DNA of 59,342 nt, counting the filler, from Bradymonadales bacterium (GTDB lineage Bacteria; Bdellovibrionota; UBA2394): NCBI GenBank assembly GCA_007693605.1. It is 6 parts of 6 records of this genome, joined end to end, with 100 filler letters (N's around TTAATTAATTAA, not from the genome) between each part and the next. Parts side by side here need not be neighbours in the genome. Positions count along the whole stretch, not along the records: positions 1 to 17,324 come from REDG01000025.1; 5 more parts are not named here. One strand, written 5' to 3'. Under the pieces are notes generated by a model. It had not been told where the DNA came from. It did not search any database and saw only the letters and a list, made by a program, of their open reading frames with translations. A program made the translations under genes and the position numbers. Positions 241 to 17,424 of this stretch are shown piece by piece. Position 1 is the stretch's first letter, and every line of letters begins with the position of its first letter.

Positions 241-342
241 TCTCGTTCCTCTAAATGCACAAACTACTGCTAACTACGGTATGTTACGAAATCGACTGAG
301 GTTTTTCAGTTTAGACTTGCACCACCTACTACTTGGATGCTT

Positions 343-396
343 TGACTTTCGACATGTTGCAGTGACTTTACGGTGACTTTGCGACGATGTGATTTT
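343..396 (+). promoter_or_regulatory. Putative integrase arm-type binding sites
   Basis: GTGACTTT at 362 and 373 (11-bp period) with variants at 343 and 389; the same GGTGACT pair with 11-bp period recurs at 10870 and 10881. Confidence 0.55.
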
Positions 397-411
397 CGAG
401 GTGTTTTTGAG

Positions 412-1587
412 ATGGTGAAGAGATTAACGAAGTCGATCATTGATGCAGCTAAGTACACGGGTGATGGAAGGTCGCCATGTTTCATATGGGACACAGAGAT
501 CGAAAGCTTTGGGGTTCGGGTCTATCCCTCTGGCAAAAAGTCCTTCCTTGTTGACTACTATCACCAGGGTCGCAAGAGGCGTTACACGATAGGAAAGTAC
601 GGCCACATCACTTTGCATCAAGCAAGGGAGCTAGCGAGAGAAAAGCTCTTTTCAGTTCAAAAGGGAATTGATCCTCTTTTCGAGCGAGAACGAGATCGTG
701 GCGCCGAGACAGTTTCAGAATTTTGTCAGATCTACATTGAACGCCACGCAAAACAAAAGAAGAAGTCCTGGCGTAAAGACGAAAGCTATATTCGCAGGTT
801 TGTCCTGCCGAAGTGGGGAAGTCGGAAGCTTAACTCTATCACGGGCAGAGATGTCTCAAACCTGCACATTGAGATTGGTGAACGCTCGCCTATTGCGGCG
901 AATCGATTGCTGCAGCAACTCTCGAAAATGTTCAATTTGGCAAAGCGATGGCAGGTCGTAGACCAAGCATGGCCGAATCCTGCTTCGGGTATCGATAAAT
1001 ATCGCGAAGTAAAGCGAGACCGTTGGCTCGATGAGGGGGAGTTGTCTCGCTTGATGGTGTCTATTCAAGAGGAGCAGAGCCCTTATGTCAAAGCCGCCTT
1101 CATCTTGTACTTACTGACAGGTGTGCGAAAGTCCGAACTTTTGAATGCGCGATGGGATGATGTCAGCTTTAGACGGAAAGAGCTTTGTCTGAGAGAAACT
1201 AAGAATGGCAACTCGCACCATGTGCCGCTCTCTGGCCCAGCCATTGAGATTCTTAAGCAATTGCCACGGGACGCGGAAAACGCTTACATCCTTCCTGGAT
1301 TGAGAGCCGGTCGACCTCTCGTAAACCTTGATAAGGCCTGGTTTAGAGTCAGATCAAGAGCGGGATTGACGGACGTGCGGCTCCATGATTTGAGAAGAAC
1401 CATGGCGTCTTGGATGGTGCAGGGTGGTGCAAGCTTGCATTTAGTTGGATCGCTTCTGAACCATCGTAGTTTAAAGACGACAGAGGTGTACGCGAGGCTT
1501 TCTAACAAGTCGCTCCGGGATGTAGTTGATACCCATGCTGAAAGGATGCTGAAGATGACGAGCCTTCGCATCATTAACGGAGGTTGA
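412..1587 (+). CDS. int: Tyrosine integrase with N-terminal arm-binding domain (P4-like)
   Basis: WD..FGVRV.PSGKKSF arm domain; TGVRKSEL, ETKNG, HDLRRT, LLNH..TTEVY catalytic motifs; ATG 412 after GAGGTG. Confidence 0.95.
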   Translation: MVKRLTKSIIDAAKYTGDGRSPCFIWDTEIESFGVRVYPSGKKSFLVDYYHQGRKRRYTIGKYGHITLHQARELAREKLFSVQKGIDPLFERERDRGAETVSEFCQIYIERHAKQKKKSWRKDESYIRRFVLPKWGSRKLNSITGRDVSNLHIEIGERSPIAANRLLQQLSKMFNLAKRWQVVDQAWPNPASGIDKYREVKRDRWLDEGELSRLMVSIQEEQSPYVKAAFILYLLTGVRKSELLNARWDDVSFRRKELCLRETKNGNSHHVPLSGPAIEILKQLPRDAENAYILPGLRAGRPLVNLDKAWFRVRSRAGLTDVRLHDLRRTMASWMVQGGASLHLVGSLLNHRSLKTTEVYARLSNKSLRDVVDTHAERMLKMTSLRIINGG

Positions 1588-1592
1588 GACTT

Positions 1593-2378
1593 ATGGCAGA
1601 GCAAGGTTATTTTGATTTGCCCACTGATCCTGCAGAATGGAAGGCCAGGGATTTCAAACACTTTTCACAAGCAGACTTGGATCACCTCATAAGAATCCAT
1701 CCAAGTTCTAAAATTTTAAGGCAGATACGTAACACCTTTAAATCTGCGGTAGCTTCAATAAGGAAGGCTGAGCCTGAGAAGGTAATTCTTAAGTGGAATA
1801 TAGCACTCTGTGAGCAAAGGCTACAATCTTTGGGTTTGGACCCTAAGCTTTGGAGGCGCGCTATCAAGGGGGATAGGAAAGAGGGACTGACTGTGACGAT
1901 ACCGACGGAGCTAAAAGAGTTGCTCGGCCGACCTAGTGATAAACTTGAGTTCAACTCTTGGGGGGCCGTCAAGATTGCAGCGCTATCCCATTGCGTTCTG
2001 GAGGGGACACAGAGCCCAGCACTGTACCGGGAGTTGTTCCATTTGACCGAAGTTCTGCCAGAATTCGAGGGCTCACTCAGGGACGAGCTTTCGATGTATG
2101 AGCAGGGGCGGAGGGGCAGGGGCAAGAAGGGCAAGCGACATGCCTCTACAAAGTTTATTCAAGCGTTCAAGTCCAGAGGAATTGGTAAATCCTATGCCAG
2201 TTTTATCGCCTTCTGCCGCTGCGACAATAATGTTGCGAAGCTGGCGGAGCTGATCGGACATCGCGTGGTGTTTATGGAAGAGTTAGACGGCGCAGATGGT
2301 CTTGAATTTGAAATCGATGGGTGTCTCAAAAAAATGAAGCGAAAGACCATCGAGAACCTCCTTTCCAAAAAGTTGTAA
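1593..2378 (+). CDS. Hypothetical island protein
   Basis: Long ORF with GGAGG RBS between integrase and AlpA-like gene. Confidence 0.7.
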   Translation: MAEQGYFDLPTDPAEWKARDFKHFSQADLDHLIRIHPSSKILRQIRNTFKSAVASIRKAEPEKVILKWNIALCEQRLQSLGLDPKLWRRAIKGDRKEGLTVTIPTELKELLGRPSDKLEFNSWGAVKIAALSHCVLEGTQSPALYRELFHLTEVLPEFEGSLRDELSMYEQGRRGRGKKGKRHASTKFIQAFKSRGIGKSYASFIAFCRCDNNVAKLAELIGHRVVFMEELDGADGLEFEIDGCLKKMKRKTIENLLSKKL

Positions 2379-2461
2379 AAAGTTTCTCCCGAAATACCGG
2401 CTTTTAGAAAATTCTCGGATTAGAGTCCTGGGTGAACCGTCATATGACAGGAGGAACTCTA

Positions 2462-2680
2462 ATGAACTTACAGAAATGTGTCTTAACGGAGCGAGAAGCA
2501 GCTGAGTATGTAAGAATGTCTCGCTCATCACTAAGGCAATCAAGACGTGGCGGCAGCCAATGTCGAAAAATATCTTCACCCCCATACATCAAGATTGGGC
2601 GGTCAATCAGATACTTCAAGGCTGATTTGGATCAGTGGTTGCGGCGCCAGAGGGTAGCTCCCTTCGGAAGGGAGGAGTAA
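2462..2680 (+). CDS. AlpA/excisionase-like HTH protein
   Basis: LTEREAAEYVRMS...PPYIKIGRSIRY..ADLDQWL; GGAGGA RBS. Confidence 0.9.
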   Translation: MNLQKCVLTEREAAEYVRMSRSSLRQSRRGGSQCRKISSPPYIKIGRSIRYFKADLDQWLRRQRVAPFGREE

Positions 2681-2916
2681 TGACTCAGAACTCGGATTCA
2701 AGTGGAATTAGTCCGTTGCAACTGTGCAAAGAGAAGGAAGCGGCCAGTCTATTGGGCGTATCCGTAAGAACAATGCAGAGCTGGAGATGTAAGGGGAACG
2801 GTCCTAAGTTTATCAAGATTTCCAATCGGGCGGTTCGTTACCGTCAGGTTGACCTCGTTGACTGGGCCAGTTCAAAACTAGCCGCTTCTACCTCGGAAGG
2901 GGGGCGGCATGACTAG
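2680..2916 (+). CDS. Second AlpA/excisionase-like HTH protein
   Basis: EKEAASLLGVSVRTMQSWR..G.GPKFIKI..RAVRY; TAATG coupling to the upstream gene. Confidence 0.9.
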   Translation: MTQNSDSSGISPLQLCKEKEAASLLGVSVRTMQSWRCKGNGPKFIKISNRAVRYRQVDLVDWASSKLAASTSEGGRHD

Positions 2917-3748
2917 AAATTCTAAAGTTTTGTTTGCCACCAACGCTGGGGCTCTTATCAACGAGGGCTGGCCTGTTTTGCCATTGCATTTCCCTATGGA
3001 TGGGGGCTGTTCATGCCGCAGGTCAAGGTGTTCGAGTATCGGAAAACATCCAATTACTTCACAAGGCTTGCGTGATGCCTCATTAGACGAGCGGGTGATA
3101 CAGGTTTGGAGTGCGGCCTGCCCAGCTGCCAACATCGGTATTGCGGCAGGAGGGCAGTCTGGATTTTTCGTTCTCGACATTGATGAAAAGAGCGGGGGCT
3201 TTGATTCACTACGTGACCTTGAAAGGACCTGGGGGGAACTGCCAGACACAGTTCGTGTCCTTACGGGGGGTGGTGGAGTCCACTACTACTTCGCGTATCC
3301 AAAGAGTGGTTTTGTAAAAACCAGGGTCAGCCTGTGTCCTGGTATAGATGTGAGGTCCGACGGGAGTTATGTTGTGGCTCCTCCAAGCGTCCATGCGAGT
3401 GGGCGTACTTACGAGTGGGAGATCGATCATTCTCCAGATGACATTTATCTCCGGCCTGCACCGGACTGGCTTGTAAGCTTGATAAATGATCATCAGCACT
3501 CCACGTCTATGGCGAGGGATCTAGAGCTGATGAATGTTCTCGGCGAAGGTTCCAGAAACATGACTCTTACGAGGTTGGTTGGGCTCCTCCTCGGAAATGG
3601 GATTCCTAAAGGGCTGGTCTTAAGGCTTACAAAAGCTTTCAACGAAAAGTATGCACGCCCACCATTACCCAACTCTGAAATTGAACAAATCGTGATGAGT
3701 ATTGGCAGGCGAGAAGCTTCAAAGAATCAAAGGAGATTCCATGATTAG
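2909..3748 (+). CDS. Bifunctional DNA primase/polymerase with PriCT domain
   Basis: GWPVLPL, CSC..C..GKHP, ANIGIA, VLDID, TGGGGVHYYF, GIDVR..GSYVVAPPS.H, GEGSRN. Confidence 0.92.
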   Translation: MTRNSKVLFATNAGALINEGWPVLPLHFPMDGGCSCRRSRCSSIGKHPITSQGLRDASLDERVIQVWSAACPAANIGIAAGGQSGFFVLDIDEKSGGFDSLRDLERTWGELPDTVRVLTGGGGVHYYFAYPKSGFVKTRVSLCPGIDVRSDGSYVVAPPSVHASGRTYEWEIDHSPDDIYLRPAPDWLVSLINDHQHSTSMARDLELMNVLGEGSRNMTLTRLVGLLLGNGIPKGLVLRLTKAFNEKYARPPLPNSEIEQIVMSIGRREASKNQRRFHD

Positions 3749-5186
3749 CCAATTTATACCAAGTATTGTGGCGCCTGGCGAGGCTCATTGTGAATTTCCA
3801 ATGGAGGCTTTGGGTAGCAACTTAGCAAGTGTAGCAGGGGTTTTGTCAGACGTGATTCAAGCGCCAACTTCCATGTGTTGCCAGAGCGTATTGGCAGCCA
3901 CATCATTGGCTGTTCAAAATCACGGCGATGTTGAGGTTGATGGTAGGCGATGCCCAATATCAAATTTTTTCATTTCTATCGCTGAGAGTGGTGAGCGGAA
4001 GTCTGCAATCGATTCCGTTGTTCTTGCTCCTCATCGATTGTATGAAGTTGAGCTCTCAAAGAAATATGCACTCCAGCAAAGATCCTATCAGGATCGGCTC
4101 GCTTTATATGAGAGGAAGAGGGGCAGGCTTTTAAACAAGGCAGACCAGGAGGAGATTGACGAGCAGCTGGAAACTTTAATCGGGGCCCATCCAGAGGCCC
4201 CTTTGTTGCCCATTTTCTTGGTTCGTGATCTTACGGTCGAGGGGCTTTACAAGACGATGAAAGATGGTCATCCAGGCTTGGGATTCTTTACCGATGAGGG
4301 GGGAGCATTCGTCGGGGGCTATGGTATGGGGAAGGACCACGAATTAAAGACAATGGCATGTCTTAGCGATACCTGGGATGGGAAGCCAATTGCCAGGGTT
4401 CGGGCCGGTGAGGAGAGCTTGGTGCTGAGGGGGCGTCGAGTGTCTCTCCATATCATGCTTCAGCCCATAGCCTTCAAAAAGTTGCTTTCCAGCGGAATTG
4501 CATCCGGGCAAGGGTTTCTCTCTAGGGCGCTGTGTGTCTATCCACATTCTAGGAAAGGGAGGCGCCGATACGTGGAGACGGACATTTCAAAGGTTCCAAG
4601 CATTATTCGTTTCCAAACCAGAATTGGTGAGCTCTTAAGAATGCAGCCCTCATTGGCGCCGGGTTCAAGAAATGAGCTTAACCCACCAGTTCTGACTCTC
4701 ACGCCGAACGCAAAGAAATTATTCATCGAACAGAGTAATTTCATAGAGGAAAAGCTTGGCAAATCGGGGCCCTATGCATCCATCGACTCCTTCGCAAGTA
4801 AGGCCCCGGAACATGCATTGAGACTGGCAGCGACGATTTGTTTGTACGAAGACGCAGAGACATCACAGATCGATGAGGAGTGTATGACTCGCGGATTTGC
4901 TCTAATAGCATTCTATCTCAACCAATCTTTGAAAGTCGTTGGCGACGCTCATGCTGAGAGACTTAGCGATCTAGCTGTACAATTGGAAGAATGGCTTCTC
5001 CTGAAGGGACTAAAAGAAATTGATTCAAGATTTCTTCAACAATACGCTCCGAATGCTCTTAGAAAGGGTCAGGTTTTGAACATGGTGGTGAAATTGTTGG
5101 AAAGCCAGGGGGTCATGATCCCAATCGCAGGAGGCAAGGTAATCGATGGGGTTCATCGGAGGCAAGTTTGGGAAGTCAGATTGTAA
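3741..5186 (+). CDS. DUF3987/YfjI-family replicative helicase-like protein
   Basis: IAESGERKS P-loop, D.T.EGL, TDEGG, MLQP, GQGFLSR. Confidence 0.85.
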   Translation: MISQFIPSIVAPGEAHCEFPMEALGSNLASVAGVLSDVIQAPTSMCCQSVLAATSLAVQNHGDVEVDGRRCPISNFFISIAESGERKSAIDSVVLAPHRLYEVELSKKYALQQRSYQDRLALYERKRGRLLNKADQEEIDEQLETLIGAHPEAPLLPIFLVRDLTVEGLYKTMKDGHPGLGFFTDEGGAFVGGYGMGKDHELKTMACLSDTWDGKPIARVRAGEESLVLRGRRVSLHIMLQPIAFKKLLSSGIASGQGFLSRALCVYPHSRKGRRRYVETDISKVPSIIRFQTRIGELLRMQPSLAPGSRNELNPPVLTLTPNAKKLFIEQSNFIEEKLGKSGPYASIDSFASKAPEHALRLAATICLYEDAETSQIDEECMTRGFALIAFYLNQSLKVVGDAHAERLSDLAVQLEEWLLLKGLKEIDSRFLQQYAPNALRKGQVLNMVVKLLESQGVMIPIAGGKVIDGVHRRQVWEVRL

Positions 5187-5233
5187 TCCCTATGATCGCT
5201 ACACTTGCTAATCTGCTACAGCCTAGATTTGTC

Positions 5234-5300
5234 ACGGGTCCTTCCTGGCAATGACCGGATGCGGGTGGGGGTGAGTGCGAAGGTTCGTGGTGCGCGCTAA
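5234..5300 (+). other. Lambda-type cos-like region (cosQ GGGTCCT)
   Basis: ACGGGTCCTTCC about 100 bp upstream of a Nu1-like gene. Confidence 0.5.
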
Positions 5301-5343
5301 ATAAATTTGCCCCGTCACTTCGCGGATGGTTTAATCAAGTGAC

Positions 5344-5784
5344 ATGAAAAAATATATGGGGCTTAGAGAGTATGCTCGGCATAGAGGCTGTCATTTGAGC
5401 ACTGTCCAAGAGGCTATTCGATCTGGCCGGATAACAACGGCGTTGCACAAAGGTAAATCAATGCTCGACCCAGCGCTAGCAGACCGACAGTGGAGAAACA
5501 ACACAGATCCAATTGCATCCATGGTCGGTCGGGAAAATGCGCGACAAAGCCGAACTTTTGAAACCAGTACGGTAGGTATTGATGACCTCTATGAGAGTGC
5601 GGTCGGTTACATGGAAGAAATTGATTTGAATGTAATCTTGAGCCCAATATTTCGCCCCCAGGAAGGGCAGGAGAGATTCGTAGACGAGTTTATCTTGAAG
5701 GAGTTGGCCCTGAGTGATGAGTATTTGATTACCCACTCGGACCTCAAAAGCTTGATGGTTAAATTGTTGAAGAAGGCCCTATAG
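5344..5784 (+). CDS. Terminase small subunit (Nu1)-like or Rpp-like protein
   Basis: N-terminus MGLREYARHRG....VQEAIRSGRI...DPALADRQW resembles Nu1-type winged HTH. Confidence 0.65.
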   Translation: MKKYMGLREYARHRGCHLSTVQEAIRSGRITTALHKGKSMLDPALADRQWRNNTDPIASMVGRENARQSRTFETSTVGIDDLYESAVGYMEEIDLNVILSPIFRPQEGQERFVDEFILKELALSDEYLITHSDLKSLMVKLLKKAL

Positions 5785-5818
5785 CGGTCGGCAGTTTTGA
5801 TTTATTCGGATTTGATCG

Positions 5819-6475
5819 CTACACCATTCTTTTAAATATGCGCCTTGCTTTCTTCAGGCCTTCTTTTCGCCCGGGTTGCGGCCAATGATAGCTTGGATGG
5901 TATAGGTATGCTAACTGTTCCACACTGTGTTCATCCTTATTTTTGTCGAGGAATTCAAAAGCTTCTTTTCCCAGTGCGATGATGACTTTTGGCTCTATAA
6001 GTTGAATCTCACTCGATAGGAATCTTTCATAACATGTATGTTTGGTAATTGGATGCAGTTGCTTCGTTTTATCTTTCGTCGAGCATTTCACAAGGTTTGT
6101 AAAAGCCACTTTCCGTACGATTTCGGTGTCGGTTAGGTTAAGTATGGACCTCAAGTAGTTCATAAGACGAGTATGAAAGGTTAACCCTCGCGTGTTAGCG
6201 AGAAAATTTTTACGCAGGAGGGCCTCCTCATAAAACCTTGCACTGAGCTTGCTCATTGGCTCGTTTCTCGACGACCGATAAAACTCATGCTCCTCATCTA
6301 TAGGGTGCCCAGGATTTTTTCCGACAACCAGAACCTTGGCTTGTCCGGTTCGCGACCCGTTTAAAAAGCCCCGGGGTCGTTCCAATCTTGATTTGCGGGT
6401 TCCAGGGCATCGGGCGCATGGCAATCGGCAGCCCGAGACCGCACCGTACAACTTATCTAACTTAGCTCGTCGCAT
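5819..6475 (-). CDS. Uracil-DNA glycosylase superfamily protein (family 4/5-like)
   Basis: VLVVGKNPG, FTNLVKC, EIQLIEPKVIIALG, LYHPS; N-terminal Cys cluster; start uncertain (6475 or 6514). Confidence 0.8.
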   Translation of the reverse strand: MRRAKLDKLYGAVSGCRLPCARCPGTRKSRLERPRGFLNGSRTGQAKVLVVGKNPGHPIDEEHEFYRSSRNEPMSKLSARFYEEALLRKNFLANTRGLTFHTRLMNYLRSILNLTDTEIVRKVAFTNLVKCSTKDKTKQLHPITKHTCYERFLSSEIQLIEPKVIIALGKEAFEFLDKNKDEHSVEQLAYLYHPSYHWPQPGRKEGLKKARRIFKRMV

Positions 6476-6530
6476 AATCCAGTTTACGTACGTAAATTCA
6501 TGATTGTAAACCACCAGCTAACATCCTGAT

Positions 6531-6749
6531 ATGACTAGGGGTTCGGACGACCCACTGGCTGAGATGCGTCAGCAAGTGAAGGACTTAATATCGCAGCGCT
6601 ATCGCACAGTTGAGGAATTTTGCTGGGCAAATGATCTTAGTAAAGCGACAGTCTCTAACTTTCTTGCGGGAAGGAAGGACTTTCAGGTGAGTACACTTCA
6701 GAAAGTTGCCAATGGGCTGAAAAAGAAGCTTCACATCTCTCTGAGGTGA
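6531..6749 (+). CDS. XRE-family HTH regulator
   Basis: LSKATVSNFLAGRKDFQVSTLQKVANGL. Confidence 0.85.
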   Translation: MTRGSDDPLAEMRQQVKDLISQRYRTVEEFCWANDLSKATVSNFLAGRKDFQVSTLQKVANGLKKKLHISLR

Positions 6750-6949
6750 GTATTGTGGGTTCTTGCAATACAAGCTTCTGCATCATGGGAGGTTGATAGT
6801 AAGATGAGCTAATGGGGCCGGGACCCATAAACTTTCTTTGCAATTGATGCTCATGGAGCCCCGGCTAGTGTTTCGGGCAACCGTACGCTTGAGGTTGGTG
6901 CTCAGTGATTTGAAATTGAACGAGCAATATTACGAGAGGAGATAATGAG

Positions 6950-7255
6950 ATGTTGCCCATGAGATATGAAAAGATAATTAGACGCGTGTTCAACTGTGAT
7001 CGGCTCGGTGATCCGGCAAGAATTGCAAACACTGATACCTATTCGGACTCCGATTTAGACATGGTAAAGGCTGGTCTGGCCTACGCTAATGCTCATGCAA
7101 TTTGTCGAGCTTACAAGGCGGGCAGAGACAGTCTTGCTGGGAATCTGGAGAAATTATTTGAAACGATTTGGGGGGCTGAGACAACCGCTGATCTAGATTC
7201 AGTTGTTGAGAAAATCTATAGCAGTCAGGCTGAGATGTTGATTTCAGAGGACTGA
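6950..7255 (+). CDS. Hypothetical protein
   Basis: ORF preceded by GAGGAG. Confidence 0.6.
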   Translation: MLPMRYEKIIRRVFNCDRLGDPARIANTDTYSDSDLDMVKAGLAYANAHAICRAYKAGRDSLAGNLEKLFETIWGAETTADLDSVVEKIYSSQAEMLISED

Positions 7256-7299
7256 TCGAGCAGGGTGGCGGACCCGAACAAATGTTGATCTTTCGTGCC

Positions 7300-7569
7300 T
7301 CAACCAAATGGAACAACAGTGTCTATTTGGCCTGTCTTCTGAGCGCTGCGGCGCCGATTTTTGCTGAGAACAGCGAGGCATTCGGCTCTTCGCAAACCGT
7401 TTATCTCATCTTGTGATACTGTAAAGGAAACCGACACGCCAGCATCTAGGCGGGGATAGTCAGCCCTATTCATTACATCTTGCCAGGAAAAAAAGTATGG
7501 CCGACCGCACTGATCGGTTATCTCACCATATCCCTTGTCTCGGTTGTACCATTTCACTATCGCTACCAT
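7300..7569 (-). CDS. Cold-shock domain protein (divergent)
   Basis: VKWYN.DKGYG.I RNP1-like motif, YFFSW, L..G..VSF. Confidence 0.75.
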   Translation of the reverse strand: MVAIVKWYNRDKGYGEITDQCGRPYFFSWQDVMNRADYPRLDAGVSVSFTVSQDEINGLRRAECLAVLSKNRRRSAQKTGQIDTVVPFG

Positions 7570-7683
7570 AGTTTCATGGTAACTCAATGGTTGCAGCGAT
7601 GCTCAGCATCAAGATCATTTAGCATTTGCCTTCGACGCTCCGCTCTCCCTTATCCTGAAGGCAGGCTTTCGCCACGGAGTTTT

Positions 7684-10605
7684 ATGATTATCAGGGATGC
7701 TAATGCTAATTTATTTATTGTCTTTGGTGGACTATTCAGTCGGAAAGTAATCGAAGGGCATCTACGAGAGCATACCTTTAAGGGGACTGCTCGTGCAGAT
7801 ACACGCAGTGCGTTGGGTGCGTTTTACTCCTTCATGTCCAGCGGAACTGGCGTTTCAGAAAGAAGCCGTCTTCAACCAAAAATTTTAGAGTTAGTGTCGA
7901 CTATTTCGGCCTGGAAGGATGTTGAGCGAACGGGTACGACCGGCGACTTGCTTTGTCTGAATAAGGGGAAGCAATTGCTAATTGAAGTGAAGGTTCAAAC
8001 AAGCGATCGTCTCGACGAAGCAAAGGGTTCTGGCGTCCCTTACGCTGAAGATCAGTTGATACGAGACTTGAACAGACGGAAAATACCATGGGGAATACTA
8101 ACAAATGGTTGGAGTTGGCGGTTCTACAATAAGGATATGCCAGAGCAGACCATTGAGTTTTGCCTTGCAGATATTGCTAGAAGTACAATCAGCCAGCCTG
8201 AATTGGATCTGTTTTGTGCAATGTTAGAAGACCCAGAGGTTCTGGCGAGACTACATAAGGAATCGGCCGAGGCAAAAACTAGATCAACAGAACTTCTTAG
8301 TAAGAATCTTAGAAATTGTTACCTGAGTCTATTGGGTGCGTCCTGGGAGAGAGAGGTTGCCGTCCGATTCTTGCTCCGACTATGCGCCCAACGATTTTTA
8401 GAAGACTGCGGAATCTTGAACGTTCTCGATAGAGGGTATCAGGATAGGCGACTAGACGTGCCTGATAATTTTGACCATGAGGCGAATATCGTTTCTTGGT
8501 TGTGTAAAGTTTGGAAAGAGATCGGTCGGGGCCGATGGACAATTCCCACCGAGAAAGCCGGTGACTTGCTTCCGATTTCGGAAGACTTTTTCACGAATGA
8601 AGAACAAAGGTTGTTGAAAAAACAGCCAGAGATAAAAGACCTCTCTTCCTTACTTCGTGAGACATTTGTTGCCGCTGGTGGCCCCATAGATTGTTCCGAT
8701 TTGAATATTGAATTCTTTGGCTCATTTTATCAGTTGGTTGAAGACCCGACTCAAAAGAACGACTCAGGGAGATACTTTACGAATTTGGAGTTGGCCAGAA
8801 GACTGTCTGTATACTTGTCGGAGAGATTTGCAAGGCGAGATACCCTCAGAGAGGGCGAGTACATTCTCGACCCGGCCTGTGGAAGTGGTCAGTTGCTGAG
8901 GTTGTTGATACCCTATGCGATGAACTTTGTTTCGTATGATGACTCAGCGCCAACAAAGTTGGAGCATTGGCGAAGGTTTTCACAACATCTCGCTGGCCTT
9001 GACATTGACGAGAACTGCGTCTGGATCGCAAAGGTTAGTCTTTGGCTTGCTACTGCTGCCAAGGGAAGACCATTTGTTCGTGTTAATGTAAGGAAGAATG
9101 ATGTCATCAGCTCTTGTATTGGGAAGAGTCGAGATGTTTATGGTGAGGCTTTAGGTTTTTCTCATACCGAGGCAGTCGTTGCTATAATTACAAACCCGCC
9201 CTGGGAGGAGCTGAGGATTCAGTTCCCTCAATATTACAAAAAGGCGACCGGGAAGACTACGCCAAAGCAGAGGGATGACAAGGCATGGCAAGAGTACATG
9301 AAATTCAAAGCTCGTCATCAAGGCGCGTTTGACAAGTTAGTGGATCACCAGTCAAAAATGAATCTAAAGATCAGACAGTGCTTTGGGATTAGCGGCATTC
9401 CAAATCTTGCAGAGGTTTTTTTGATAATCTGTCGCGATCTTTTAATCTCAATGGCTGAGACCACCGAACGAAGCCAGCTACCCTACGCCATTATTCTGCC
9501 AGACCAATTTTTTCTTGGTACGAGGATGGCCGAACTAAGAAAAAAGATCCTATGCGAGGTCGATTGCTATATTCCCTTCGCGAGAAACATTGATCCAAAT
9601 ACGGGCAAAAGATATTTTCATGGAGTTGACCCTAATCGGCGGTTCGGAATTATTCTAGGTAAGGTAAACCAGTCGAGATCTATCACCAACATAAGTGCTC
9701 GGCCCCTACACGGGATGGAGATTAAAGTGCCTCTTGATAAGCTCGGTCTCTTGCCCTTGCATAATCATCCAATCGAGCTAACTTGCCTTCAGCAGCTTGT
9801 GTCCCTCAGGAGCGATGAGGTTGAAGCGCTTTGGAATGTTGGAGAATGGGATGCCACAGCATGGAATCGAGGTTCGCGAAAGATAGTATCAGAGAGGTCA
9901 CCTCAGGCGATGGCTTTAATCAAAGCAGAGGGATTGGGGCTTGGCAGCGGGCACGAGTTGTCCTTTAGAAAGAAGGAGAACGTGCTTTGGTGGGTGCATT
10001 CAAAGGAGCCAAAAGATGTCAGTGTTGCAAGGTCGGGGCGGCTTATAATTGGAGACACAAAACGTAACGCTGGAAAAATAGTTCGCGCTGGATATGTGTT
10101 TGGCAGCAATCACAGAATCGCTGGAGTTGCTCGGCCTCTCAATGGAGTTGCACTGCAAAACACGCTGTTGTACGCACAAATTAGCTCAGACTGGTTGCCT
10201 TATTTTCAGTCACTATTTTTTGAGTTTGCAATGAGGAGTATCGCAGGAGCTCAACACTTGAATGCTTGGCGATTAAATTTATTGGGTATTCCAAGAATGC
10301 CAGAGGGGTTCCTTAAAAGATTGCAGAAATCGAGTTTTGCAGAGCAGCAAAGGTTGCTTGCAGAGGAACTTAAATTCACTCCTTCAGAGTTTTTGACTGT
10401 TGTTAAAGCTGCAAAACCACTGCTCCAGAGTGGCAACTGGGTCGAGCTCTTGGTTCAGGCCAAGAAGATGGCCGACAACGACACTCTTAAGCGGGAAATT
10501 TCAGAGCTGCTCGAATTGGAGAAGAAGGTTCAAGAATTGGAAAAAAAGGCAGCGAAGAAAAAGAGTCGTACGAAGGCTACACGTTTACAAGAAGCTTCAG
10601 GTTGA
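7684..10605 (+). CDS. Type IIG-like fused restriction endonuclease / N6-adenine methyltransferase
   Basis: GD..(IEVK) PD-(D/E)xK nuclease, WGILTNG..WRFY, GRYFT, ILDPACGSG, IITNPPW; start uncertain. Confidence 0.85.
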   Translation: MIIRDANANLFIVFGGLFSRKVIEGHLREHTFKGTARADTRSALGAFYSFMSSGTGVSERSRLQPKILELVSTISAWKDVERTGTTGDLLCLNKGKQLLIEVKVQTSDRLDEAKGSGVPYAEDQLIRDLNRRKIPWGILTNGWSWRFYNKDMPEQTIEFCLADIARSTISQPELDLFCAMLEDPEVLARLHKESAEAKTRSTELLSKNLRNCYLSLLGASWEREVAVRFLLRLCAQRFLEDCGILNVLDRGYQDRRLDVPDNFDHEANIVSWLCKVWKEIGRGRWTIPTEKAGDLLPISEDFFTNEEQRLLKKQPEIKDLSSLLRETFVAAGGPIDCSDLNIEFFGSFYQLVEDPTQKNDSGRYFTNLELARRLSVYLSERFARRDTLREGEYILDPACGSGQLLRLLIPYAMNFVSYDDSAPTKLEHWRRFSQHLAGLDIDENCVWIAKVSLWLATAAKGRPFVRVNVRKNDVISSCIGKSRDVYGEALGFSHTEAVVAIITNPPWEELRIQFPQYYKKATGKTTPKQRDDKAWQEYMKFKARHQGAFDKLVDHQSKMNLKIRQCFGISGIPNLAEVFLIICRDLLISMAETTERSQLPYAIILPDQFFLGTRMAELRKKILCEVDCYIPFARNIDPNTGKRYFHGVDPNRRFGIILGKVNQSRSITNISARPLHGMEIKVPLDKLGLLPLHNHPIELTCLQQLVSLRSDEVEALWNVGEWDATAWNRGSRKIVSERSPQAMALIKAEGLGLGSGHELSFRKKENVLWWVHSKEPKDVSVARSGRLIIGDTKRNAGKIVRAGYVFGSNHRIAGVARPLNGVALQNTLLYAQISSDWLPYFQSLFFEFAMRSIAGAQHLNAWRLNLLGIPRMPEGFLKRLQKSSFAEQQRLLAEELKFTPSEFLTVVKAAKPLLQSGNWVELLVQAKKMADNDTLKREISELLELEKKVQELEKKAAKKKSRTKATRLQEASG

Positions 10606-10798
10606 GGAGCTTGGCTTTTCTAAAGGTAATATTTGATTTAATCGCAGACTTTAGTTTAGTGATCCGAGCGATAGCTAGATCAAGTTCGTCGGCACTAAGC
10701 TCCTGGTCCAGAGAATGCTCTATTGCCATGAGCTCCTCACGAATCGTATTTATCACGATTGCACTTCTTTTTTCTTCGTTAGCAGCCAGCATGAGCAC
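10577..10798 (-). CDS. Small helical hypothetical protein
   Basis: 73-aa ORF converging on and overlapping the end of the RM gene. Confidence 0.45.
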   Translation of the reverse strand: MLMLAANEEKRSAIVINTIREELMAIEHSLDQELSADELDLAIARITKLKSAIKSNITFRKAKLLNLKLLVNV

Positions 10799-10932
10799 TC
10801 ATAAGTAGCTAGGACCGGCACTGTCTGACAAGGCGTTAATTTTATCGCAGGGAACGATCAAGGGTTGACGGTGACTTATTGGTGACTCAGGATCTGCTCG
10901 AATTGCCAATTCCGGCTGTAATCGCCTTAAAA

Positions 10933-11007
10933 TGGCTCCCAGGGAGGGATTTGAACCCCCGACAGGGTGGTTAACAGCCACCTGCTCTACCCCTGAGCTA
11001 CCTGGGA
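10933..11007 (-). tRNA. tRNA-Asn (GTT)
   Basis: 75-nt cloverleaf TCCCAGG...CTGTTAA...CCTGGGAGCCA. Confidence 0.97.
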
Positions 11008-11140
11008 ATGATGTTTACCAACTTGCTCCTACACTACTGAAGCTCAGGGGTAGAGCAAACTGGTTTTTTTTCTGCGCCTTTGGGGCGCAAGCCCTGAGCC
11101 GAAGTCTGAATATGCCGAATGCCCCTTAGCCTGCCAAGAA

Positions 11141-11734
11141 CTATGCCCCCTTTTCCTTCTTCAGCTCCAGTAAGACCAGTTTTGCGATGGCTTTTAGGGT
11201 CTCAAAAACCCCCTCGCCAGTGACGGCGGTGGCCTCAAAATCGGGGACCTTGTTCGGATTGAGCAGGTTTCTTAAGTCCTCCACGCTGCTCACATTCGGA
11301 AGATCTCTCTTATTGTACTGAATCACAAAGGGCAGCTTCTCAAGCTCATAACCCTGCTCTTGAAGGTTGACCTTCAAATTCTCTAAGCTCTCTAAATTGG
11401 CGTCGAGTCGATCTTTTTGCGAATCGGCTACAAAAACCACTCCGTCGACTCCCTTCAAAATAAGCTTTCGACTGGCATCATAAAAAACCTGACCTGGCAC
11501 CGTATACAAATGAAATCGGGTTTTGAAGCCTCGAATCTCTCCTAAGGCCAGCGGAAGAAAGTCAAAGAACAAAGTTCTTTCGGTTTCAGTCGCCAAGGAG
11601 ATCATCTTGCCCTTCGCTTTGGGAGCGGTTTTTTTATAAACAAACTGAAGGTTGGTTGTTTTACCGCACAGACCGGGGCCGTAATACACAATCTTGCAGT
11701 TGATCTCCCGATTCGAATAATTGATAAATGCCAT
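11141..11734 (-). CDS. mglA: Small Ras-like GTPase MglA
   Basis: [39 protein letters not shown]. Confidence 0.97.
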
Positions 11735-11764
11735 GAGTTTGCTGCGTTAACCTTTCAGTCTCGT

Positions 11765-12253
11765 TTACTCTTGTCCCTGGCCCACGACCACATCGACGGC
11801 CGCTTCGCTTAAGCCAGACAAGGCCTCAGCCGTACTGACTCCCATCTTTCCAGAGCGCCTATATTTCTTCAGATGCCCGTGAAACTTGCTCCACTGGGCA
11901 GTGTAGGGAATCCTAATACACACAATAATCCAATTCTCAAAATAATCGACCCAAAAGCCTTCGTGATCTTCGCCAAACTGAGCCCAACTTCCTTTCGTCT
12001 TGAGCTGGTGATTGAGCTCATCTTTAATCCCTCTGAGGGCTGCCGAAAGAGCGCCGAGAGAGGTTTTGTCTACTTGCTTCGTCTTTCCCGCTTCAAAGAT
12101 AACATCCCCCGTTTGACTCAATACAAAAATTCCCCCCTGGGGGCTGCGAGACTTCTTAAAGAGATCATTCAACAAATTTTGAGCCTCCTCTTGCCAGCTC
12201 AGCTTGGCCGGGGCTCGTTTTTTGCTCTTCTTTGAGGGGGAAGCTTTTGCCAT
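11765..12253 (-). CDS. mglB: Divergent roadblock protein, MglB-like
   Basis: Between recR and mglA; IFVLSQTG.VI..AG....DKTSLGAL.A matches the MglB core. Confidence 0.65.
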   Translation of the reverse strand: MAKASPSKKSKKRAPAKLSWQEEAQNLLNDLFKKSRSPQGGIFVLSQTGDVIFEAGKTKQVDKTSLGALSAALRGIKDELNHQLKTKGSWAQFGEDHEGFWVDYFENWIIVCIRIPYTAQWSKFHGHLKKYRRSGKMGVSTAEALSGLSEAAVDVVVGQGQE

Positions 12254-12263
12254 AAGCAGAATC

Positions 12264-12857
12264 TTAGCGGAGCTTGGTCCGGCCTTCAAAGGCTTTTCCT
12301 AAAGTGATTTGATCGGCAAATTCCAACTCACTCCCCATCGGCAAGCCAGACGCCAGTCGAGAGAGCTGAACCGGCTCATTGGAGAGTTTTTGGGCCACAT
12401 AGCTCACCGTGGCCTCTCCCTCTACTGTGGGGTTTAGGGCCAGAATCAACTCTTCTGGCCTCTGGCGACTCACCCGATCAAACAACAACTGAAGCCCGAT
12501 CTCATCGGGGCCCACTCCCTCCAAAGGAGAAAGAAGCCCGTGGAGCACAAAATAGGTGCCATTGTACTTTCCGAGCCTTTCGATCGGGTAGATATCACTG
12601 GGTTTCTCGACGACACAAAGCAGTTCAGGCTTTCTGACGGGGCTTGCGCAAATTCGGCAGGGGCTCTCTTCGGTCAGTGTCCGACAATTGGAACAAAAGC
12701 TCACCTGAGACAATGCCTTTAGAGACTCTGCCAGCTTCTCTCGAAACTGTGGTGAAGCCCTTAACAGATAAAACGCCAGCCGCGTCGCCGTGCGCTCCCC
12801 AATGCCTGGCAAGCGAGCCAGATGCAGAATCACTTCATCAATCGCTGCGGATTTCAA
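12264..12857 (-). CDS. recR: Recombination mediator RecR
   Basis: LPGIG..TA.RLA, C4 zinc finger, LSPLEGVGP, NPTVEGEAT. Confidence 0.97.
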   Translation of the reverse strand: MKSAAIDEVILHLARLPGIGERTATRLAFYLLRASPQFREKLAESLKALSQVSFCSNCRTLTEESPCRICASPVRKPELLCVVEKPSDIYPIERLGKYNGTYFVLHGLLSPLEGVGPDEIGLQLLFDRVSRQRPEELILALNPTVEGEATVSYVAQKLSNEPVQLSRLASGLPMGSELEFADQITLGKAFEGRTKLR

Positions 12858-12878
12858 GCTTCTTCCTTTCTGTGCAGT

Positions 12879-14027
12879 TTATGCGGCAAACTTTCGGAGG
12901 GTCTTTTGAATCACCTCAATCACCTTGGGCACCTGACTCATCTCAGAGCTTTCCCCTAAACTGAATCGAATCGCCGATCGAGCTTCATCTTCAGAGTAGC
13001 CCAAACTCAGCAAAGCCGGCGAAGCCATCGACATTCCTGATGAGCAGGCCGAACCGGCACTTGCGCAAATATTGTTCACATCTAAACTCATTAACAAGGC
13101 ATCCGAGGCGACACCAGGAAAGATGCAGGTGCTGGTGTTCGGAAGGCGAGTGAGCTCTTCTCCCACAATCTTGATCTGAGAGCTTAAGGCCTTGAGTTCT
13201 GATTCAAAATGATCTCGCACTTCTCGAATTCGACCTTGATACTCCTGAACGGCTTGGTCGAGAACATCCAAAAGACCATCTACACTGGCAACGCCCAAGA
13301 GATTTTCAGTGCCTGCGCGCCTCTTCTTCTCTTGGCCACCGCCGCAGATGCAAGACTCCCAGTCGCTTCCCGTTTTCAGGTACAGAGCGCCAATGGCCTT
13401 GAGCCCGCCACTCTTGTGAAAGGCAAGGCTGGCGGAATTCAGACCCTCTTGCTTTAAACTCAAAGGCCCTCGCCCAAAAACCTGCACCATATCGGAATGA
13501 AAGGCCGTTTCATAGCGAGCACAAAGAGCTGCCACCGCTTGCCAGTCTTGAACGATGCCCGTCTCGTTGCTTGCCCCTTGCAGGCTGCACAAGAACACAT
13601 CGCCGCCGCTTAGAATTTTTTCAAGCGCCTCAAGGTCAGCCAAGCCAGACGGTAGAAGAGGGAGCTCCACACTTTCTACGCCCTCGTTCTCCGCTAAAAA
13701 CTCTACATTCTTTGTGACCGCCGCGTGCTCTATTGACGAGCTGACGAGTTTTTTTCTTGGCTTTGACTTCTTTTTCTCTGTGAGCCAAAACCCCCAAAGC
13801 CCCAGCATATTGGCCTCTGTAGCGGAGCCGCAAAAAACAACTTCGGTGGGAAGTACGCCTAGTTTTTCTGCCAGTCGACGACGCACCGTCTCGAGATAGG
13901 CTCGAGCTTCTTGTCCGGGTCGATGAATGGAGCTCGGGTTACCATCGTAGCGATGAAGCGCTTCAATCACCTTCTCTTTGATATGGGGGTGAAGAGGGGC
14001 GGTCGCATTGTAGTCCCAGTAGATCAT
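12879..14027 (-). CDS. Cysteine desulfurase (IscS/NifS family)
   Basis: YWDYNATAP, NPSS.H, NETG, HK, RAGTEN, SAGSACSSG. Confidence 0.93.
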   Translation of the reverse strand: MIYWDYNATAPLHPHIKEKVIEALHRYDGNPSSIHRPGQEARAYLETVRRRLAEKLGVLPTEVVFCGSATEANMLGLWGFWLTEKKKSKPRKKLVSSSIEHAAVTKNVEFLAENEGVESVELPLLPSGLADLEALEKILSGGDVFLCSLQGASNETGIVQDWQAVAALCARYETAFHSDMVQVFGRGPLSLKQEGLNSASLAFHKSGGLKAIGALYLKTGSDWESCICGGGQEKKRRAGTENLLGVASVDGLLDVLDQAVQEYQGRIREVRDHFESELKALSSQIKIVGEELTRLPNTSTCIFPGVASDALLMSLDVNNICASAGSACSSGMSMASPALLSLGYSEDEARSAIRFSLGESSEMSQVPKVIEVIQKTLRKFAA

Positions 14028-16111
14028 GGTCTTCGGTCCAAATGAAACTCGACTCGACGGTTCTCGGCGCGGCCGGCATCGGTTTCGTTGGTGGCGACTG
14101 GGCGGTGCGGGCCGTAGCCCTCTGAGATTAAACGATCTGCATCTAAGCCCTGATTGATCAAGTACTGTCGAACGGCCTCAGCCCGTCGAGTACTCAGCCG
14201 AATATTGTAGTCGGTGCTTCCTGTTGAGTCTGTATGACCTTCAATTCGAAGTTTTCCGAAGTCAGAAACTTGCGACAAGACTTCCACTACTTGATCGAGA
14301 ATCTCGAAGGATCTCTCTTCGATTCGGTCGGAGTCGAACGCAAAATAGATGGCATCAGGGAGGACGATCTGGTCTTCAATTAGAGTGGCTCTCTCTGGTC
14401 GGTTTAGAGTGATTTCAATATAAAGATCTTCGCCCGCAAGTACCTCACAAGAAATCTCTGTGGGCAGATAGTTCTCGGCTTGTACTCGAAAGTTGTGAGT
14501 TCCCTGTTTCAGAACTTGTCGAAACTCACCCGTCAGCGGATTGGTGCCAAAGGGAGAGATCTCTCCGCTCAAGTCCGTCAAGACGGCGGTCAGTCCGTTG
14601 CCGTCAGGGTTTTTGACGATGCCGCCGCAGACACCAAACTGTTCCGGCTCCGGTTGAAGATAAAAGGTTTGAGCAATGGCTTCGTCTGCAAAAATCTCAA
14701 CAGAAAAATCAGCGGGCAAAAATCCGGGTGCTTCCACTCGCATAAACTTCGGCCCCTCAGGCACTTGTCGAAGGCGAACGCGACCGGTTTCATCGCTACT
14801 AAAGTTTTGGTCGACATCACTTAAGCTCACGACAGCTCGCGAGATGGGTTCGTCGGTATCGGCCCGCCGAAACTGAGCCGTCAGTTCGCCGGTGCGACTG
14901 CCCAATAGGCGAAGTTCCACATCAGCGACAACCGCCGAGCCCCTGCGGATTTCGACATTACGAGTGACGGTTTCGTAGCCCTCGGCTTCGAATTGCAGTT
15001 GGTAGCTGCCGTCTGGTAGTCGAATCATTTCATAAGAGCCTGAAGACGAGCTGACGGCAGGCAGTCTGGGTGAGCCCGGCACTCGCACGCTGGCACCCGC
15101 AATGCCCAAGCCCGTTTCACGATCTCGAATGTAACCACGAACTCGCCCCTCGGCCTCAAAAAGTGTTCGCCCAATACTGCTAAAGGTGACGCCTGCGTAG
15201 ACTTCCCAAGGGGGATTTTCAGGAATTTGAATTCTCTCACCCGCAGTTTTTCCAAACAGTCCCAGCTGCCCGGCGAGCAGGATGCTAAAACTCTCGTGGG
15301 GTCGAGCGCGCGCTCCCAAAATGGCGGAGTGTCGGTTGCTTTTCCAGGTGGTGGGGTCGTTTCCTGTGCCAAAGGCATACTCCCAGTGGTATTCCAGAAA
15401 GGGAGAGACATAAGGGTAGCGGGCTTCGAGGGCGAGACTTCCCAACATACTATGATAGCCCATGGCATCTAAAGCGAATTGATCGACATGAGTCGCCCGA
15501 GGAAAGCCCGGGGCCTCGGGGATGCTCAAATTACTGTTCGGGCTTCGATAGCCCAAATTGAAATGAAGTTTAGCCGGAAAGCTCGGGCTCATTTTTTCAA
15601 TGTCCCAAGTGCCAAGAGCGTAGAGAAATGCCTGAAGGTGCGGGCCTGAGCGATTTCGAGAGAAGCCTGAAGTGTTTCTTCGAACTTGCGTGCCTGTGAA
15701 AGTTCGACCGTGGCCTAGAATCGCATACTGAAGATGCTCTCCGCTCCAAGGCAAAGTCCACTTTACACCGAGGTCGACATTTTCAAAAAGACTGGTCGAA
15801 GACTGAGAGGCTGCGAGAGTGCTGTGTTCGTTAAAGGTAAATGAAAATCCACTAAAGAGCTCAAGCTGGTAGGGGAGGCTGTAGTTGAGCGCCAATCGAA
15901 CGCCAGCACGGCTGTGTTTTTGGTCGTCGATGAAGGGGGTTTTGTTGAAAAATCGACCTGTCAAGCCGATCCCAAAGCTGGTGGGCTCTTTGCTCTGCGC
16001 AGAATAGGTGTGGAGTGTGCCCGTTGGCCCGGTATAGCTCGGATGGCTTTCAGGGGGATTCTCCATGGCCGACGACAATTGACTTAAAATCAGGAAACTC
16101 AGCTTAATCAC
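14024..16111 (-). CDS. Outer-membrane protein: beta-barrel-like N-terminus, carboxypeptidase-regulatory-like domains, C-terminal OmpA domain
   Basis: IYFAFDSD, IEGHTD, YN..LS..RA, NRRVEF; three beta-sandwich repeats. Confidence 0.85.
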   Translation of the reverse strand: MIKLSFLILSQLSSAMENPPESHPSYTGPTGTLHTYSAQSKEPTSFGIGLTGRFFNKTPFIDDQKHSRAGVRLALNYSLPYQLELFSGFSFTFNEHSTLAASQSSTSLFENVDLGVKWTLPWSGEHLQYAILGHGRTFTGTQVRRNTSGFSRNRSGPHLQAFLYALGTWDIEKMSPSFPAKLHFNLGYRSPNSNLSIPEAPGFPRATHVDQFALDAMGYHSMLGSLALEARYPYVSPFLEYHWEYAFGTGNDPTTWKSNRHSAILGARARPHESFSILLAGQLGLFGKTAGERIQIPENPPWEVYAGVTFSSIGRTLFEAEGRVRGYIRDRETGLGIAGASVRVPGSPRLPAVSSSSGSYEMIRLPDGSYQLQFEAEGYETVTRNVEIRRGSAVVADVELRLLGSRTGELTAQFRRADTDEPISRAVVSLSDVDQNFSSDETGRVRLRQVPEGPKFMRVEAPGFLPADFSVEIFADEAIAQTFYLQPEPEQFGVCGGIVKNPDGNGLTAVLTDLSGEISPFGTNPLTGEFRQVLKQGTHNFRVQAENYLPTEISCEVLAGEDLYIEITLNRPERATLIEDQIVLPDAIYFAFDSDRIEERSFEILDQVVEVLSQVSDFGKLRIEGHTDSTGSTDYNIRLSTRRAEAVRQYLINQGLDADRLISEGYGPHRPVATNETDAGRAENRRVEFHLDRRP

Positions 16112-16201
16112 GGCGCCATTCTAGTCAGGAGGCTTCTGAGAAAGGAAGCTGAAAATTGCCCTGATCCTGGGGGTGCAAACGCCTCTTGGGGCCTTGGGAG
16201 C

Positions 16202-16570
16202 TTGCCGGCTCCGCCTCTTGTTCTACTACGCAGCCAAGTTCATACAGAGGCCCTCGTTGGGCCTATTCGTCGATTTATAGATCCTTGGGCTAAGACTGAG
16301 ATCTCACTGCGAACCGCTCTAAAGTATGCAGAATTGACGGGAGATCAAGAGGTTCTGAGTGCTTATCGACAGGCGATGGTGCACGCGATCACCGATCATG
16401 TTTCGAGGGTTAGGGATCTAGCGATGAAGCCCCTGGCAAAGGAGGATGTCGACTCTGCTCAAAAAGTTGAGACACTAGTTCAAGAGGCGCTTGAGCGCTA
16501 TCTCAGCATCATTAGGCGAACCGATCCGGATTTTCCAGAGATGCGGTTGCCGGACGAGAGTCGGCCGTAA
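16202..16570 (+). CDS. Hypothetical protein
   Basis: 122-aa helical ORF; start uncertain. Confidence 0.45.
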   Translation: MPAPPLVLLRSQVHTEALVGPIRRFIDPWAKTEISLRTALKYAELTGDQEVLSAYRQAMVHAITDHVSRVRDLAMKPLAKEDVDSAQKVETLVQEALERYLSIIRRTDPDFPEMRLPDESRP

Positions 16571-16625
16571 GTCCTATAGGAGTCAGGCACTTCCGTCTCC
16601 CGACCCCTCGTTATTTTCGTATCAG

Positions 16626-16746
16626 TTGCGAGAATTTTTTTGCTCAGCGAGGCACCGACGACTGAGATCGAAGGAGTGTAGTTCGATGCTACTCGACTGA
16701 AGGTCGAAGGAGGAGAAACGAAGCTGAGCAAGAAAAGGCGACGCAA
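16626..16746. repeat. Long imperfect GA-rich hairpin (REP-like)
   Basis: TTGCG..TTTTTTGCTCAGC pairs with GCTGAGCAAGAAAA..CGCAA. Confidence 0.5.
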
Positions 16747-16747
16747 A

Positions 16748-17176
16748 TGGAGCGGGAGAAGGGGATCGAACCCTCGACCCCAATTTATGGTGAGCGAGTC
16801 TTTCGAGCGAATGAAGCTCCGAGCAGAGCGCAGGAGCTGAAAATAAATTGGCCCATAGGATCGTCTACGATTAGCTTTTTGGGTGGAGTGTGGAGCGGGA
16901 GAAGGGGATCGAACCCTCGACCCAGCTTTGCGGTGAGCGAGTCTTTCGAGCGAGCGACAAGGCGAGCAGAGCGCAGCCTTGGAGAGCAAAGATGCCCATA
17001 GGATCGTTTACGATTAGCTTTTTGGGTGGAGTGTGGAGCGGGAGAAGGGGATCGAACCCTCGACCCAGCTTTGCGGTGAGCGAGTCTTTCGAGCGAGCGA
17101 CAAGGCGAGCAGAGCGCAGCCTTGGAGAGCAAAGATGCCCATAGGATCGTTTACGATTAGCTTTTTGGGTGGAGTG
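16748..17176 (-). repeat. Three 143-bp tandem units, each ending in the tRNA-Gly 3' 32 nt
   Basis: TGGAGCGGGAGAAGGGGATCGAACCCTCGACC at 16748, 16891, 17034 and 17177. Confidence 0.95.
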
Positions 17177-17251
17177 TGGAGCGGGAGAAGGGGATCGAAC
17201 CCTCGACCTTCTGCTTGGCAAGCAGACGCTCTACCACTGAGCTACTCCCGC
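17177..17251 (-). tRNA. tRNA-Gly (GCC)
   Basis: 75-nt cloverleaf GCGGGAG...TTGCCAA...CTCCCGCTCCA. Confidence 0.97.
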
Positions 17252-17324
17252 ATTTCACCGGGCGCTTTTTCTTTCTACAAAATCGGCGGTATAGACGGTG
17301 CTATAGCCAGTTTTGTTCTCGGAG

Positions 17325-17424
17325 NNNNNNNNNNNNNNNNNNNNNNNNNNNNNNNNNNNNNNNNNNNNTTAATTAATTAANNNNNNNNNNNNNNNNNNNN
17401 NNNNNNNNNNNNNNNNNNNNNNNN
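17325..17424. other. Artificial contig linker
   Basis: N44-TTAATTAATTAA-N44 (stops in all six frames). Confidence 0.99.

Follow-up and report, generated by a model that had tools for sequence, protein, structure and literature searches.

A structured, gene-less repeat module beside tRNA genes of a Bradymonadales bacterium is best read as a reversed, probably DNA-level variant of the TLR kind

An array of repeats behind tRNA-Gly(GCC) in a Bradymonadales bacterium is best read as a new form of the tRNA-linked repeats (TLRs) of E. coli, with its orientation reversed. Judging from its sequence and that of its relatives, we propose that the repeated module is a gene-less insertion element of this kind that acts as folded single-stranded DNA and duplicates the end of its target, a reading to which we assign a probability of roughly 0.55. 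One conserved fold is found antisense behind tRNAs, sense in front of tRNAs, and sense behind tRNAs, which separates the fold from tRNA transcription. The placement of the fold antisense to the tRNA, together with the presence of copies in front of tRNAs, favors an insertion element that acts at the level of DNA over a small RNA, and the occurrence of the same fold in three placements makes the RNA-versus-DNA question directly testable. TLRs are usually treated as small RNAs; the present case adds a reversed orientation with evidence for the strand that folds. Movement of the element is deduced from the distribution of its copies.

The array lies in contig C46 of the genome under study (G000), which makes up positions 1-17,324 of the window, the whole 59,342-nucleotide stretch that was analyzed. 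The window consists of separate contigs that have been joined (a run of N at 17325-17424 surrounds a fixed 12-nt linker, and equal runs are present at four later sites), so sequence past 17324 is not a true neighbor of the array. An intact tRNA-Gly(GCC) with an encoded CCA is present at 17177-17251 on the minus strand (ARAGORN; Rfam tRNA, 75 bits), and it adjoins three 143-nt units that start at 16748, 16891, and 17034. Each unit is composed of a 111-nt module and an exact 32-nt copy of tRNA-Gly positions 44-75, which run from the variable loop through the CCA. Counting outward from the tRNA, module unit 1 (17066-17176) folds on the plus strand and contains a three-way junction (17066-17137), a terminal hairpin (17140-17155), and a spacer (17156-17176), with the first tRNA copy at 17034-17065 (minus strand) beyond it. 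Module unit 2 (16923-17033, plus strand; junction 16923-16994, hairpin 16997-17012, spacer to 17033) is identical to unit 1 and is followed by the second exact copy (16891-16922, minus strand). The distal module, unit 3 (16780-16890, plus strand; junction 16780-16851, hairpin 16854-16869), has a second stem type, in which the outer stem pairs 16780-16788 with 16843-16851, the G·A zipper spans 16790-16812, and the inner stem pairs 16815-16820 with 16833-16838. The array ends in a distal copy of tRNA-Gly positions 44-75 with CCA (16748-16779, minus strand), which we infer to be the original tRNA-Gly 3' end. The stems and linkers listed for these units in a sequence-only reading of this DNA are all present, with the correction that the outer stem of units 1 and 2 has one G·A mismatch and thus 8 of 9 positions paired. 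The number of units is that of the assembly only, since the array is spanned by no contig or read and ends ∼150 nt from the contig end.

Unit 3 differs from its two identical neighbors at 24 of 111 module positions, and by our own mapping onto the structure 23 of these 24 differences fall in paired positions. The core of this unit is 84-89% identical to the cores found at Ser and Arg loci, compared with 73% identity to its own array neighbors; it differs from the Arg(TCT)-linked copy at 14 of 111 positions, and it also has paired changes of its own. The sequence-only reading had named an assembly chimera as a possible source of this divergent unit. Such an origin appears unlikely, because the Ser and Arg loci have the distal stem type as well and the unit carries paired changes of its own.

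The conserved fold is a three-way junction of ∼72 nt. Its outer stem is 9 bp long and its inner stem 6 bp, and its third helix is a zipper in which the linkers that the sequence-only reading saw as unchanged pair with each other by tandem G·A. When single sequences were folded, neither RNA (z from -1.53 to +0.31, 8 folds) nor DNA (z from -1.61 to -0.23, 4 module folds) was more stable than shuffled sequences, so the case for a structure rests on covariation. Among 11 distinct copies from G000, both sides have changed in 12 of 27 pairs. In an alignment of 18 sequences from 6 genomes, both sides have changed in 14 of 20 pairs, 90% of cells are paired, and the covariation score is 0.65, compared with 0.245 for shuffled and at most 0.10 for slid alignments; the structure was drawn by us on these same alignments, and the sequences are related and the cells not independent, so these figures are not to be read as probabilities. 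This result bears out the earlier claim of selection on structure. The GAGCGA repeats, which had been taken for sequence-specific loops, instead form a tandem G·A helix: its six G·A positions are invariant in all 18 sequences, and the pair between them undergoes compensatory change of its own (C-G in 12, T-A in 5, and T·G in 1). Such tandem pairs are stable in single-stranded DNA and in RNA alike.

The strand that folds can be read from the mismatches. In the plus-strand stems of the 18 sequences there are 20 G·T cells versus 7 A·C cells and 22 G·A cells versus no C·T cells, and the consensus fold scores better on the plus strand for 18 of 18 sequences with DNA parameters and for 17 of 18 with RNA parameters. 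Based on this mismatch bias and these consensus scores, the folding strand is the plus strand, which is antisense to tRNA-Gly. Contrary to the junction, the small terminal hairpin favors the minus strand, with 7 G·U cells at one of its pairs. According to the portion of PMC5737381 consulted here, DNA and RNA folds are not separable from sequence alone.

A family of these modules is present across G000. With an nhmmer profile built from ten copies and matches counted at E values up to 1, we identified 23 full or partial matches, 13 of them full length; where partial matches lie at contig ends, some may be two halves of a single copy. On inspection, about 21 of the 23 lie directly beside a tRNA gene or a copy of a tRNA end, in agreement with the proposal in the sequence-only reading of a tRNA-targeting, gene-less element family. 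The tRNA ends concerned are those of Gly, Ser, Arg, Cys, Trp, Asn, and Pro. ACC directly precedes the module in 14 of the 18 copies with an intact 5' end, and an exact antisense copy of 22-32 nt of the tRNA end precedes it in 11 of the 18. Among the other seven, as judged by eye, two come after Arg and Cys ends that carry one mismatch and two after a short piece of acceptor stem; one follows an apparent tRNA 5' end. At C61 23996-24032 and C18 1696-1736, two module copies adjoin non-tRNA sequence that is unique in the assembly and is possibly captured DNA. The junction is located within the variable loop (Gly and Asn), the T-stem (Ser, Arg-TCT, Pro, and Cys), or the acceptor stem (Arg-ACG), and the junction word on the tRNA strand is GGT or TGT each time. 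Two stem types recur across different tRNA loci while the tRNA end remains local, which indicates that modules move or convert between tRNAs. Elsewhere on C18 (21600-22900), a small ORF lies between short copies of the tRNA-Arg acceptor end, with both module families (the present one and family B, described below), in an arrangement like a cargo cassette.

A BLAST-level search of 30 relatives yielded one marginal match, so a covariance model was required. The model that we built de novo (R2), as the sequence-only reading had suggested, finds the module in 9 of 13 other genomes of the family, with 16 matches. Of these matches, 10 are in the R2 training alignment, whereas the copies in G001, G004, G006, G009, and contig C160 of G013 are outside it. 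Among 137 other genomes of the phylum R2 gave one match (G108), which was dropped as a low-complexity GAGC run, leaving none that is credible. A whole tRNA is present in the locus for 12 of the relatives' 16 copies, and the other four lie beside pieces of tRNA ends (by eye). The 12 copies are placed downstream and antisense in four cases, upstream and sense in two, and downstream and sense in six. Both upstream copies are accompanied by a 14-nt duplicate of the tRNA 5' end, and five of the six downstream sense copies are framed by an inverted and a direct tRNA piece. In relative G010 a full module copy precedes tRNA-Gly(GCC) (L040) and none follows it. At the equivalent place in G000, the 3' end of a further module copy precedes tRNA-Gly in sense orientation and is truncated where the contig stops (17292-17324, minus strand; a weak nhmmer match, E 0.31). 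A third module type alternates with copies of the tRNA-Gly 5' end upstream of the gene in two relatives (L040 and L042; G010 and G011).

These placements bear directly on whether the repeats could instead be a structured noncoding RNA family like RtT or RrA/B/F, with read-through transcription of sense modules and an antisense promoter for reversed ones. In E. coli, certain TLRs give rise to processed transcripts and bind Hfq and CsrA, as described in the part of PMC8144298 used here; the six sense-downstream copies among the relatives' 12 could be RNA, and the consensus fold also scores on the plus strand with RNA parameters. On the other hand, the tRNA transcript of the G000 array carries the strand that does not fold. 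The sequence-only reading had predicted that processing at each CCA would release structured RNAs of ∼143 nt; with the fold on the plus strand and the tRNA transcript on the minus strand, such CCA-ended RNAs would carry the wrong strand. No sigma-70-like promoter was found on either strand of 16000-17324, in a weak test that also missed the promoter of the tRNA itself. Two RNA runs contained 5 and 11 reads, all of tRNA sequence only and none a close match, which are too few to judge expression. In addition, a single RNA function would need to work in three different positions. We therefore regard an RNA family as an unlikely explanation of the module.

A second possibility is that the repeats are attL/attR scars of integrase-driven elements, with the module as a common end that has been amplified in tandem. 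Duplication of a tRNA end is a standard mark of integrated elements (as stated in the section of PMC9897764 consulted), and G000 has integrase islands at tRNA-Asn, in the window, and at tRNA-Met (C67). The tRNA-Asn island (∼230-10930) has an integrase frame of 413 aa close to its distal end and also encodes a protein of 1041 aa that gives weak matches to DNA methylases. A further module copy (83-171, plus strand) lies next to a 32-nt tRNA-Asn end (51-82) and is displaced by this ∼10.7-kb island from tRNA-Asn itself (10933-11007). This module is outside the island boundary, so it probably predates the island, and when the five integrase-family loci of G000 were examined with R2 this known Asn copy was the only module nearby. 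Islands and other repeats also accumulate at module/tRNA sites, which the sequence-only reading had supposed to be att-like decoys. The units of 143 nt have no coding room, and a near-identical module occurs at at least seven tRNA types, at three junction positions, and on both sides of the gene. Given these observations, an origin as integration scars is distinctly improbable.

The sequence-only reading had also advised looking for a co-occurring recombinase, HUH/Y1 transposase, or reverse transcriptase, and the search linked none to the module. The only Y1 (RAYT-like) transposase gene in G000 (218 aa; C78, 26347-27160) is flanked by inverted copies of a 27-nt REP-like repeat. This repeat, which has ∼40 copies in the genome and is a family separate from the module, is also present near the array at 16581-16607 (minus strand). 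With R2, no module was found beside any of 17 Y1 loci or beside the one Y2 locus, where no score exceeded 13.3 bits. Among the family genomes, nine have both Y1 and the module, one has the module only, one has Y1 only, and three have neither (Fisher p 0.04, which overstates the association because related genomes are not independent). The Y2 (IS91-type) transposase frame of G000 is 500 aa long, looks intact, and lies ∼1.5 kb from tRNA-Met (C34, 1687-3186); a stretch of ∼100 nt just past it is repeated at the start of the contig. One GIY-YIG match in G000, in a 616-aa frame, was taken as UvrC and set aside. Sequencing reads included no excised or circular form, at a coverage too thin to show one.

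The same search bears on target-primed retro-insertion, in which a CCA-ended minus-strand RNA would anneal through its T-arm to a nicked tRNA gene and be reverse transcribed, making the folded strand cDNA. Priming at a nick fits the fixed junction, the variable far end, and the spacers that are common to the Ser, Trp, Pro, and Cys loci. No reverse transcriptase was found in G000 (assembly 90% complete), however, and among the family genomes one is present in 4 of the 10 that have the module and in 1 of the 4 that lack it, so that reverse transcriptase and module show no link; moreover, upstream copies with a 5'-end duplicate cannot be primed by T-arm homology. We consider retro-insertion highly doubtful.

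Other repeats are also found at the tRNA genes of G000. Direct copies of tRNA positions 1 to 14-19 lie upstream of 5 of 31 tRNAs, inverted tRNA pieces lie upstream of 8 of 31 (seven of them the D-arm), and direct copies lie downstream of 8 of 31; any such copy is present at 13 of 31 tRNAs versus 32 of 930 random controls. Because tRNA genes show this mirror layout at either side, the process behind it may act on either DNA strand. Upstream units, which are often tandem, combine a direct copy of positions 1 to 14-19 with an inverted copy of the D-arm and a short insert, and are the mirror image of TLRs; they precede tRNA-Arg(TCT) on C75, tRNA-Phe on C42, tRNA-Leu(CAG) on C58, tRNA-Pro on C14, and tRNA-Ile on C28. 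Repeat family B, a long GA-rich hairpin directly behind the CCA, adjoins the array at 16625-16747 (plus strand; copies from nhmmer and BLAST). Its DNA fold has z values of -3.5 on the plus strand and -3.1 on the minus strand, and further copies, on contigs that include C18, C64, C11, C39, and C54, lie behind the tRNA ends of Ser, Arg, His, Leu, and Glu, in no stated order. A hairpin like that of family B follows tRNA-Asp in relatives G003, G004, G009, and G013, and another GA-rich repeat, partly related to family B, is present mostly away from tRNAs on C3, C9, C50, C75, C76, and C77.

Neutral template-switch debris at tRNA genes, with the stems as self-copied and unselected palindromes, is very improbable: fold-back copying yields perfect stems without selection, inverted tRNA pieces are common in G000, and the module shows no folding-energy excess over shuffles, but neutral decay would give A·C about as often as G·T and C·T about as often as G·A, as against the observed ratios of 20:7 for G·T to A·C and 22:0 for G·A to C·T, and the zippers are invariant across genera.

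Searches beyond the family were also made. A match to a described Rfam family was one outcome that the sequence-only reading had said would account for the array; at E values up to 10 at the locus and up to 1 at 18 other loci, Rfam gave only tRNAs and sub-threshold matches. In the literature searched on TLRs and related topics (open-access main texts), no description of the module was found. A scan of a genome collection gave six matches, and two named records from it are labeled Bacteriovoracaceae, a taxonomic hint; L072 and L076 are DNA already counted, and three others look like chance. In L071 (Verrucomicrobiae), two antisense units behind tRNA-Arg(CCT) (∼1757-2100) have the zipper start and the terminal motif in common with the module and score only 12.6 bits with R2; they are a possible distant cousin of it. 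Viral scans gave two matches and one match, with no tRNA nearby, that were judged to be chance. Four matches in a metagenome scan were not counted, as none lies beside a tRNA and their R2 scores are at most 17.6 bits; three of them are GA-rich actinobacterial-like repeats. By blastn against plasmids, among 20 listed of 105 records only short stretches are covered, 19 of them being the tRNA part. ColE1, to whose primosome assembly site we presumed a likeness, has best R2 scores of 11.4 and 8.6 bits, which are not significant.

For the single-stranded DNA element that we favor, the following sequence of events can be envisaged. A DNA strand that enters the tRNA gene from outside would be cut, or would stall, near the first arm it meets, which would be the T-arm on the antisense strand and the D-arm on the sense strand. 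The 3' end of that strand would then be joined to, or extended on, the module, with entry at the ACC/GGT junction. If synthesis restarts before the gene, the tRNA would be left intact and its end duplicated; at the exact-match sites, 22-32 nt of the target end are duplicated from the junction outward. Unequal exchange and conversion between units would then enlarge the arrays and mix them. The enzyme may be, as a guess, an HUH-type single-strand nuclease or a host repair or restart activity supplied in trans; under the model, some nuclease or repair activity should recognize tRNA genes from their shape. In a tentative extension, which we hold with clearly less confidence than the reading of the module itself, TLR-type repeats in general would be widespread, unrecognized, non-autonomous single-stranded DNA elements that are targeted by shape to tRNA genes, enter at either end on the strand that first meets an arm, and duplicate the gene end. 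With equal reserve, the present family and its three orientations might be the clearest case of such elements.

The terminal hairpin of the module may resemble the IS91 origin end. IS91 family elements share with the model here single-stranded DNA intermediates, one precise end, and a short target word (from the text of PMC13181058 drawn on). As given there, IS91 elements make no target duplication and use the tetranucleotide targets CTTG, GTTC, and GTCC, whereas the module has a 22-32-nt duplication and a GGT/ACC junction. The module can also be likened to REP/RAYT repeats, which are gene-less and structured and for which mobilization in trans by a Y1 transposase has been proposed, but REPs are hairpins of 20-40 nt (both points from the consulted part of PMC3733652), whereas the module has a tRNA-bound junction with target duplication; REPs flank their Y1 gene, and the module is present at 0 of 17 Y1 loci. 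Like the module, islands that target tRNAs leave an intact tRNA and a displaced 3' fragment. In contrast to att scars, the units lack integrase and cargo, and one module is found at many tRNA types and at both gene ends. The part of PMC9897764 consulted attributes tRNA fragments to integration and CRISPR only.

The nearest comparison is with the TLRs of E. coli. Earlier studies of TLRs and of the tyrT 178-bp repeat are said to be those of Egan and Landy (1978) and Rudd (1999). In the text of PMC8144298 drawn on here, ten loci carry 22 such repeats in all, and every repeat terminates in 18-19 bp from the 3' end of the upstream gene; they have been known since 1978 and, outside rrA/B/F, where they are transcribed and processed small RNAs, are described as having no known function or origin. 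These counts run against the earlier statement that tyrT repeats are locus-specific, as does the GA-rich core that the tyrT and lysT units of E. coli visibly have in common. We measured direct ends of 19 nt at tyrV and 18 nt at lysT, and the tyrV units also have an inverted tRNA piece. When R2 was run against the E. coli tyrT and lysT regions there was no match (best score, 8.8 bits), nor was there an RtT match in Rfam. The duplicated end is longer for the module (22-32 nt, and 32 nt in the Gly array) than for E. coli TLRs (18-19). The modules of the G000 Gly array fold antisense to the tRNA and, unlike the tyrV units, have no inverted tRNA arm. A further difference from E. coli TLRs is that the module can also precede tRNAs, together with a duplicate of their 5' end. 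The relatives' tRNA-Asp copies have the same inverted-plus-direct framing as the tyrV units. Both E. coli TLRs and the module are gene-less and GA-rich, occur in 1-5 tandem copies beside many tRNA genes, and have units that end in the 3' end of the local gene. As judged from these comparisons, the module works like a TLR but lies outside the sequence family of E. coli.
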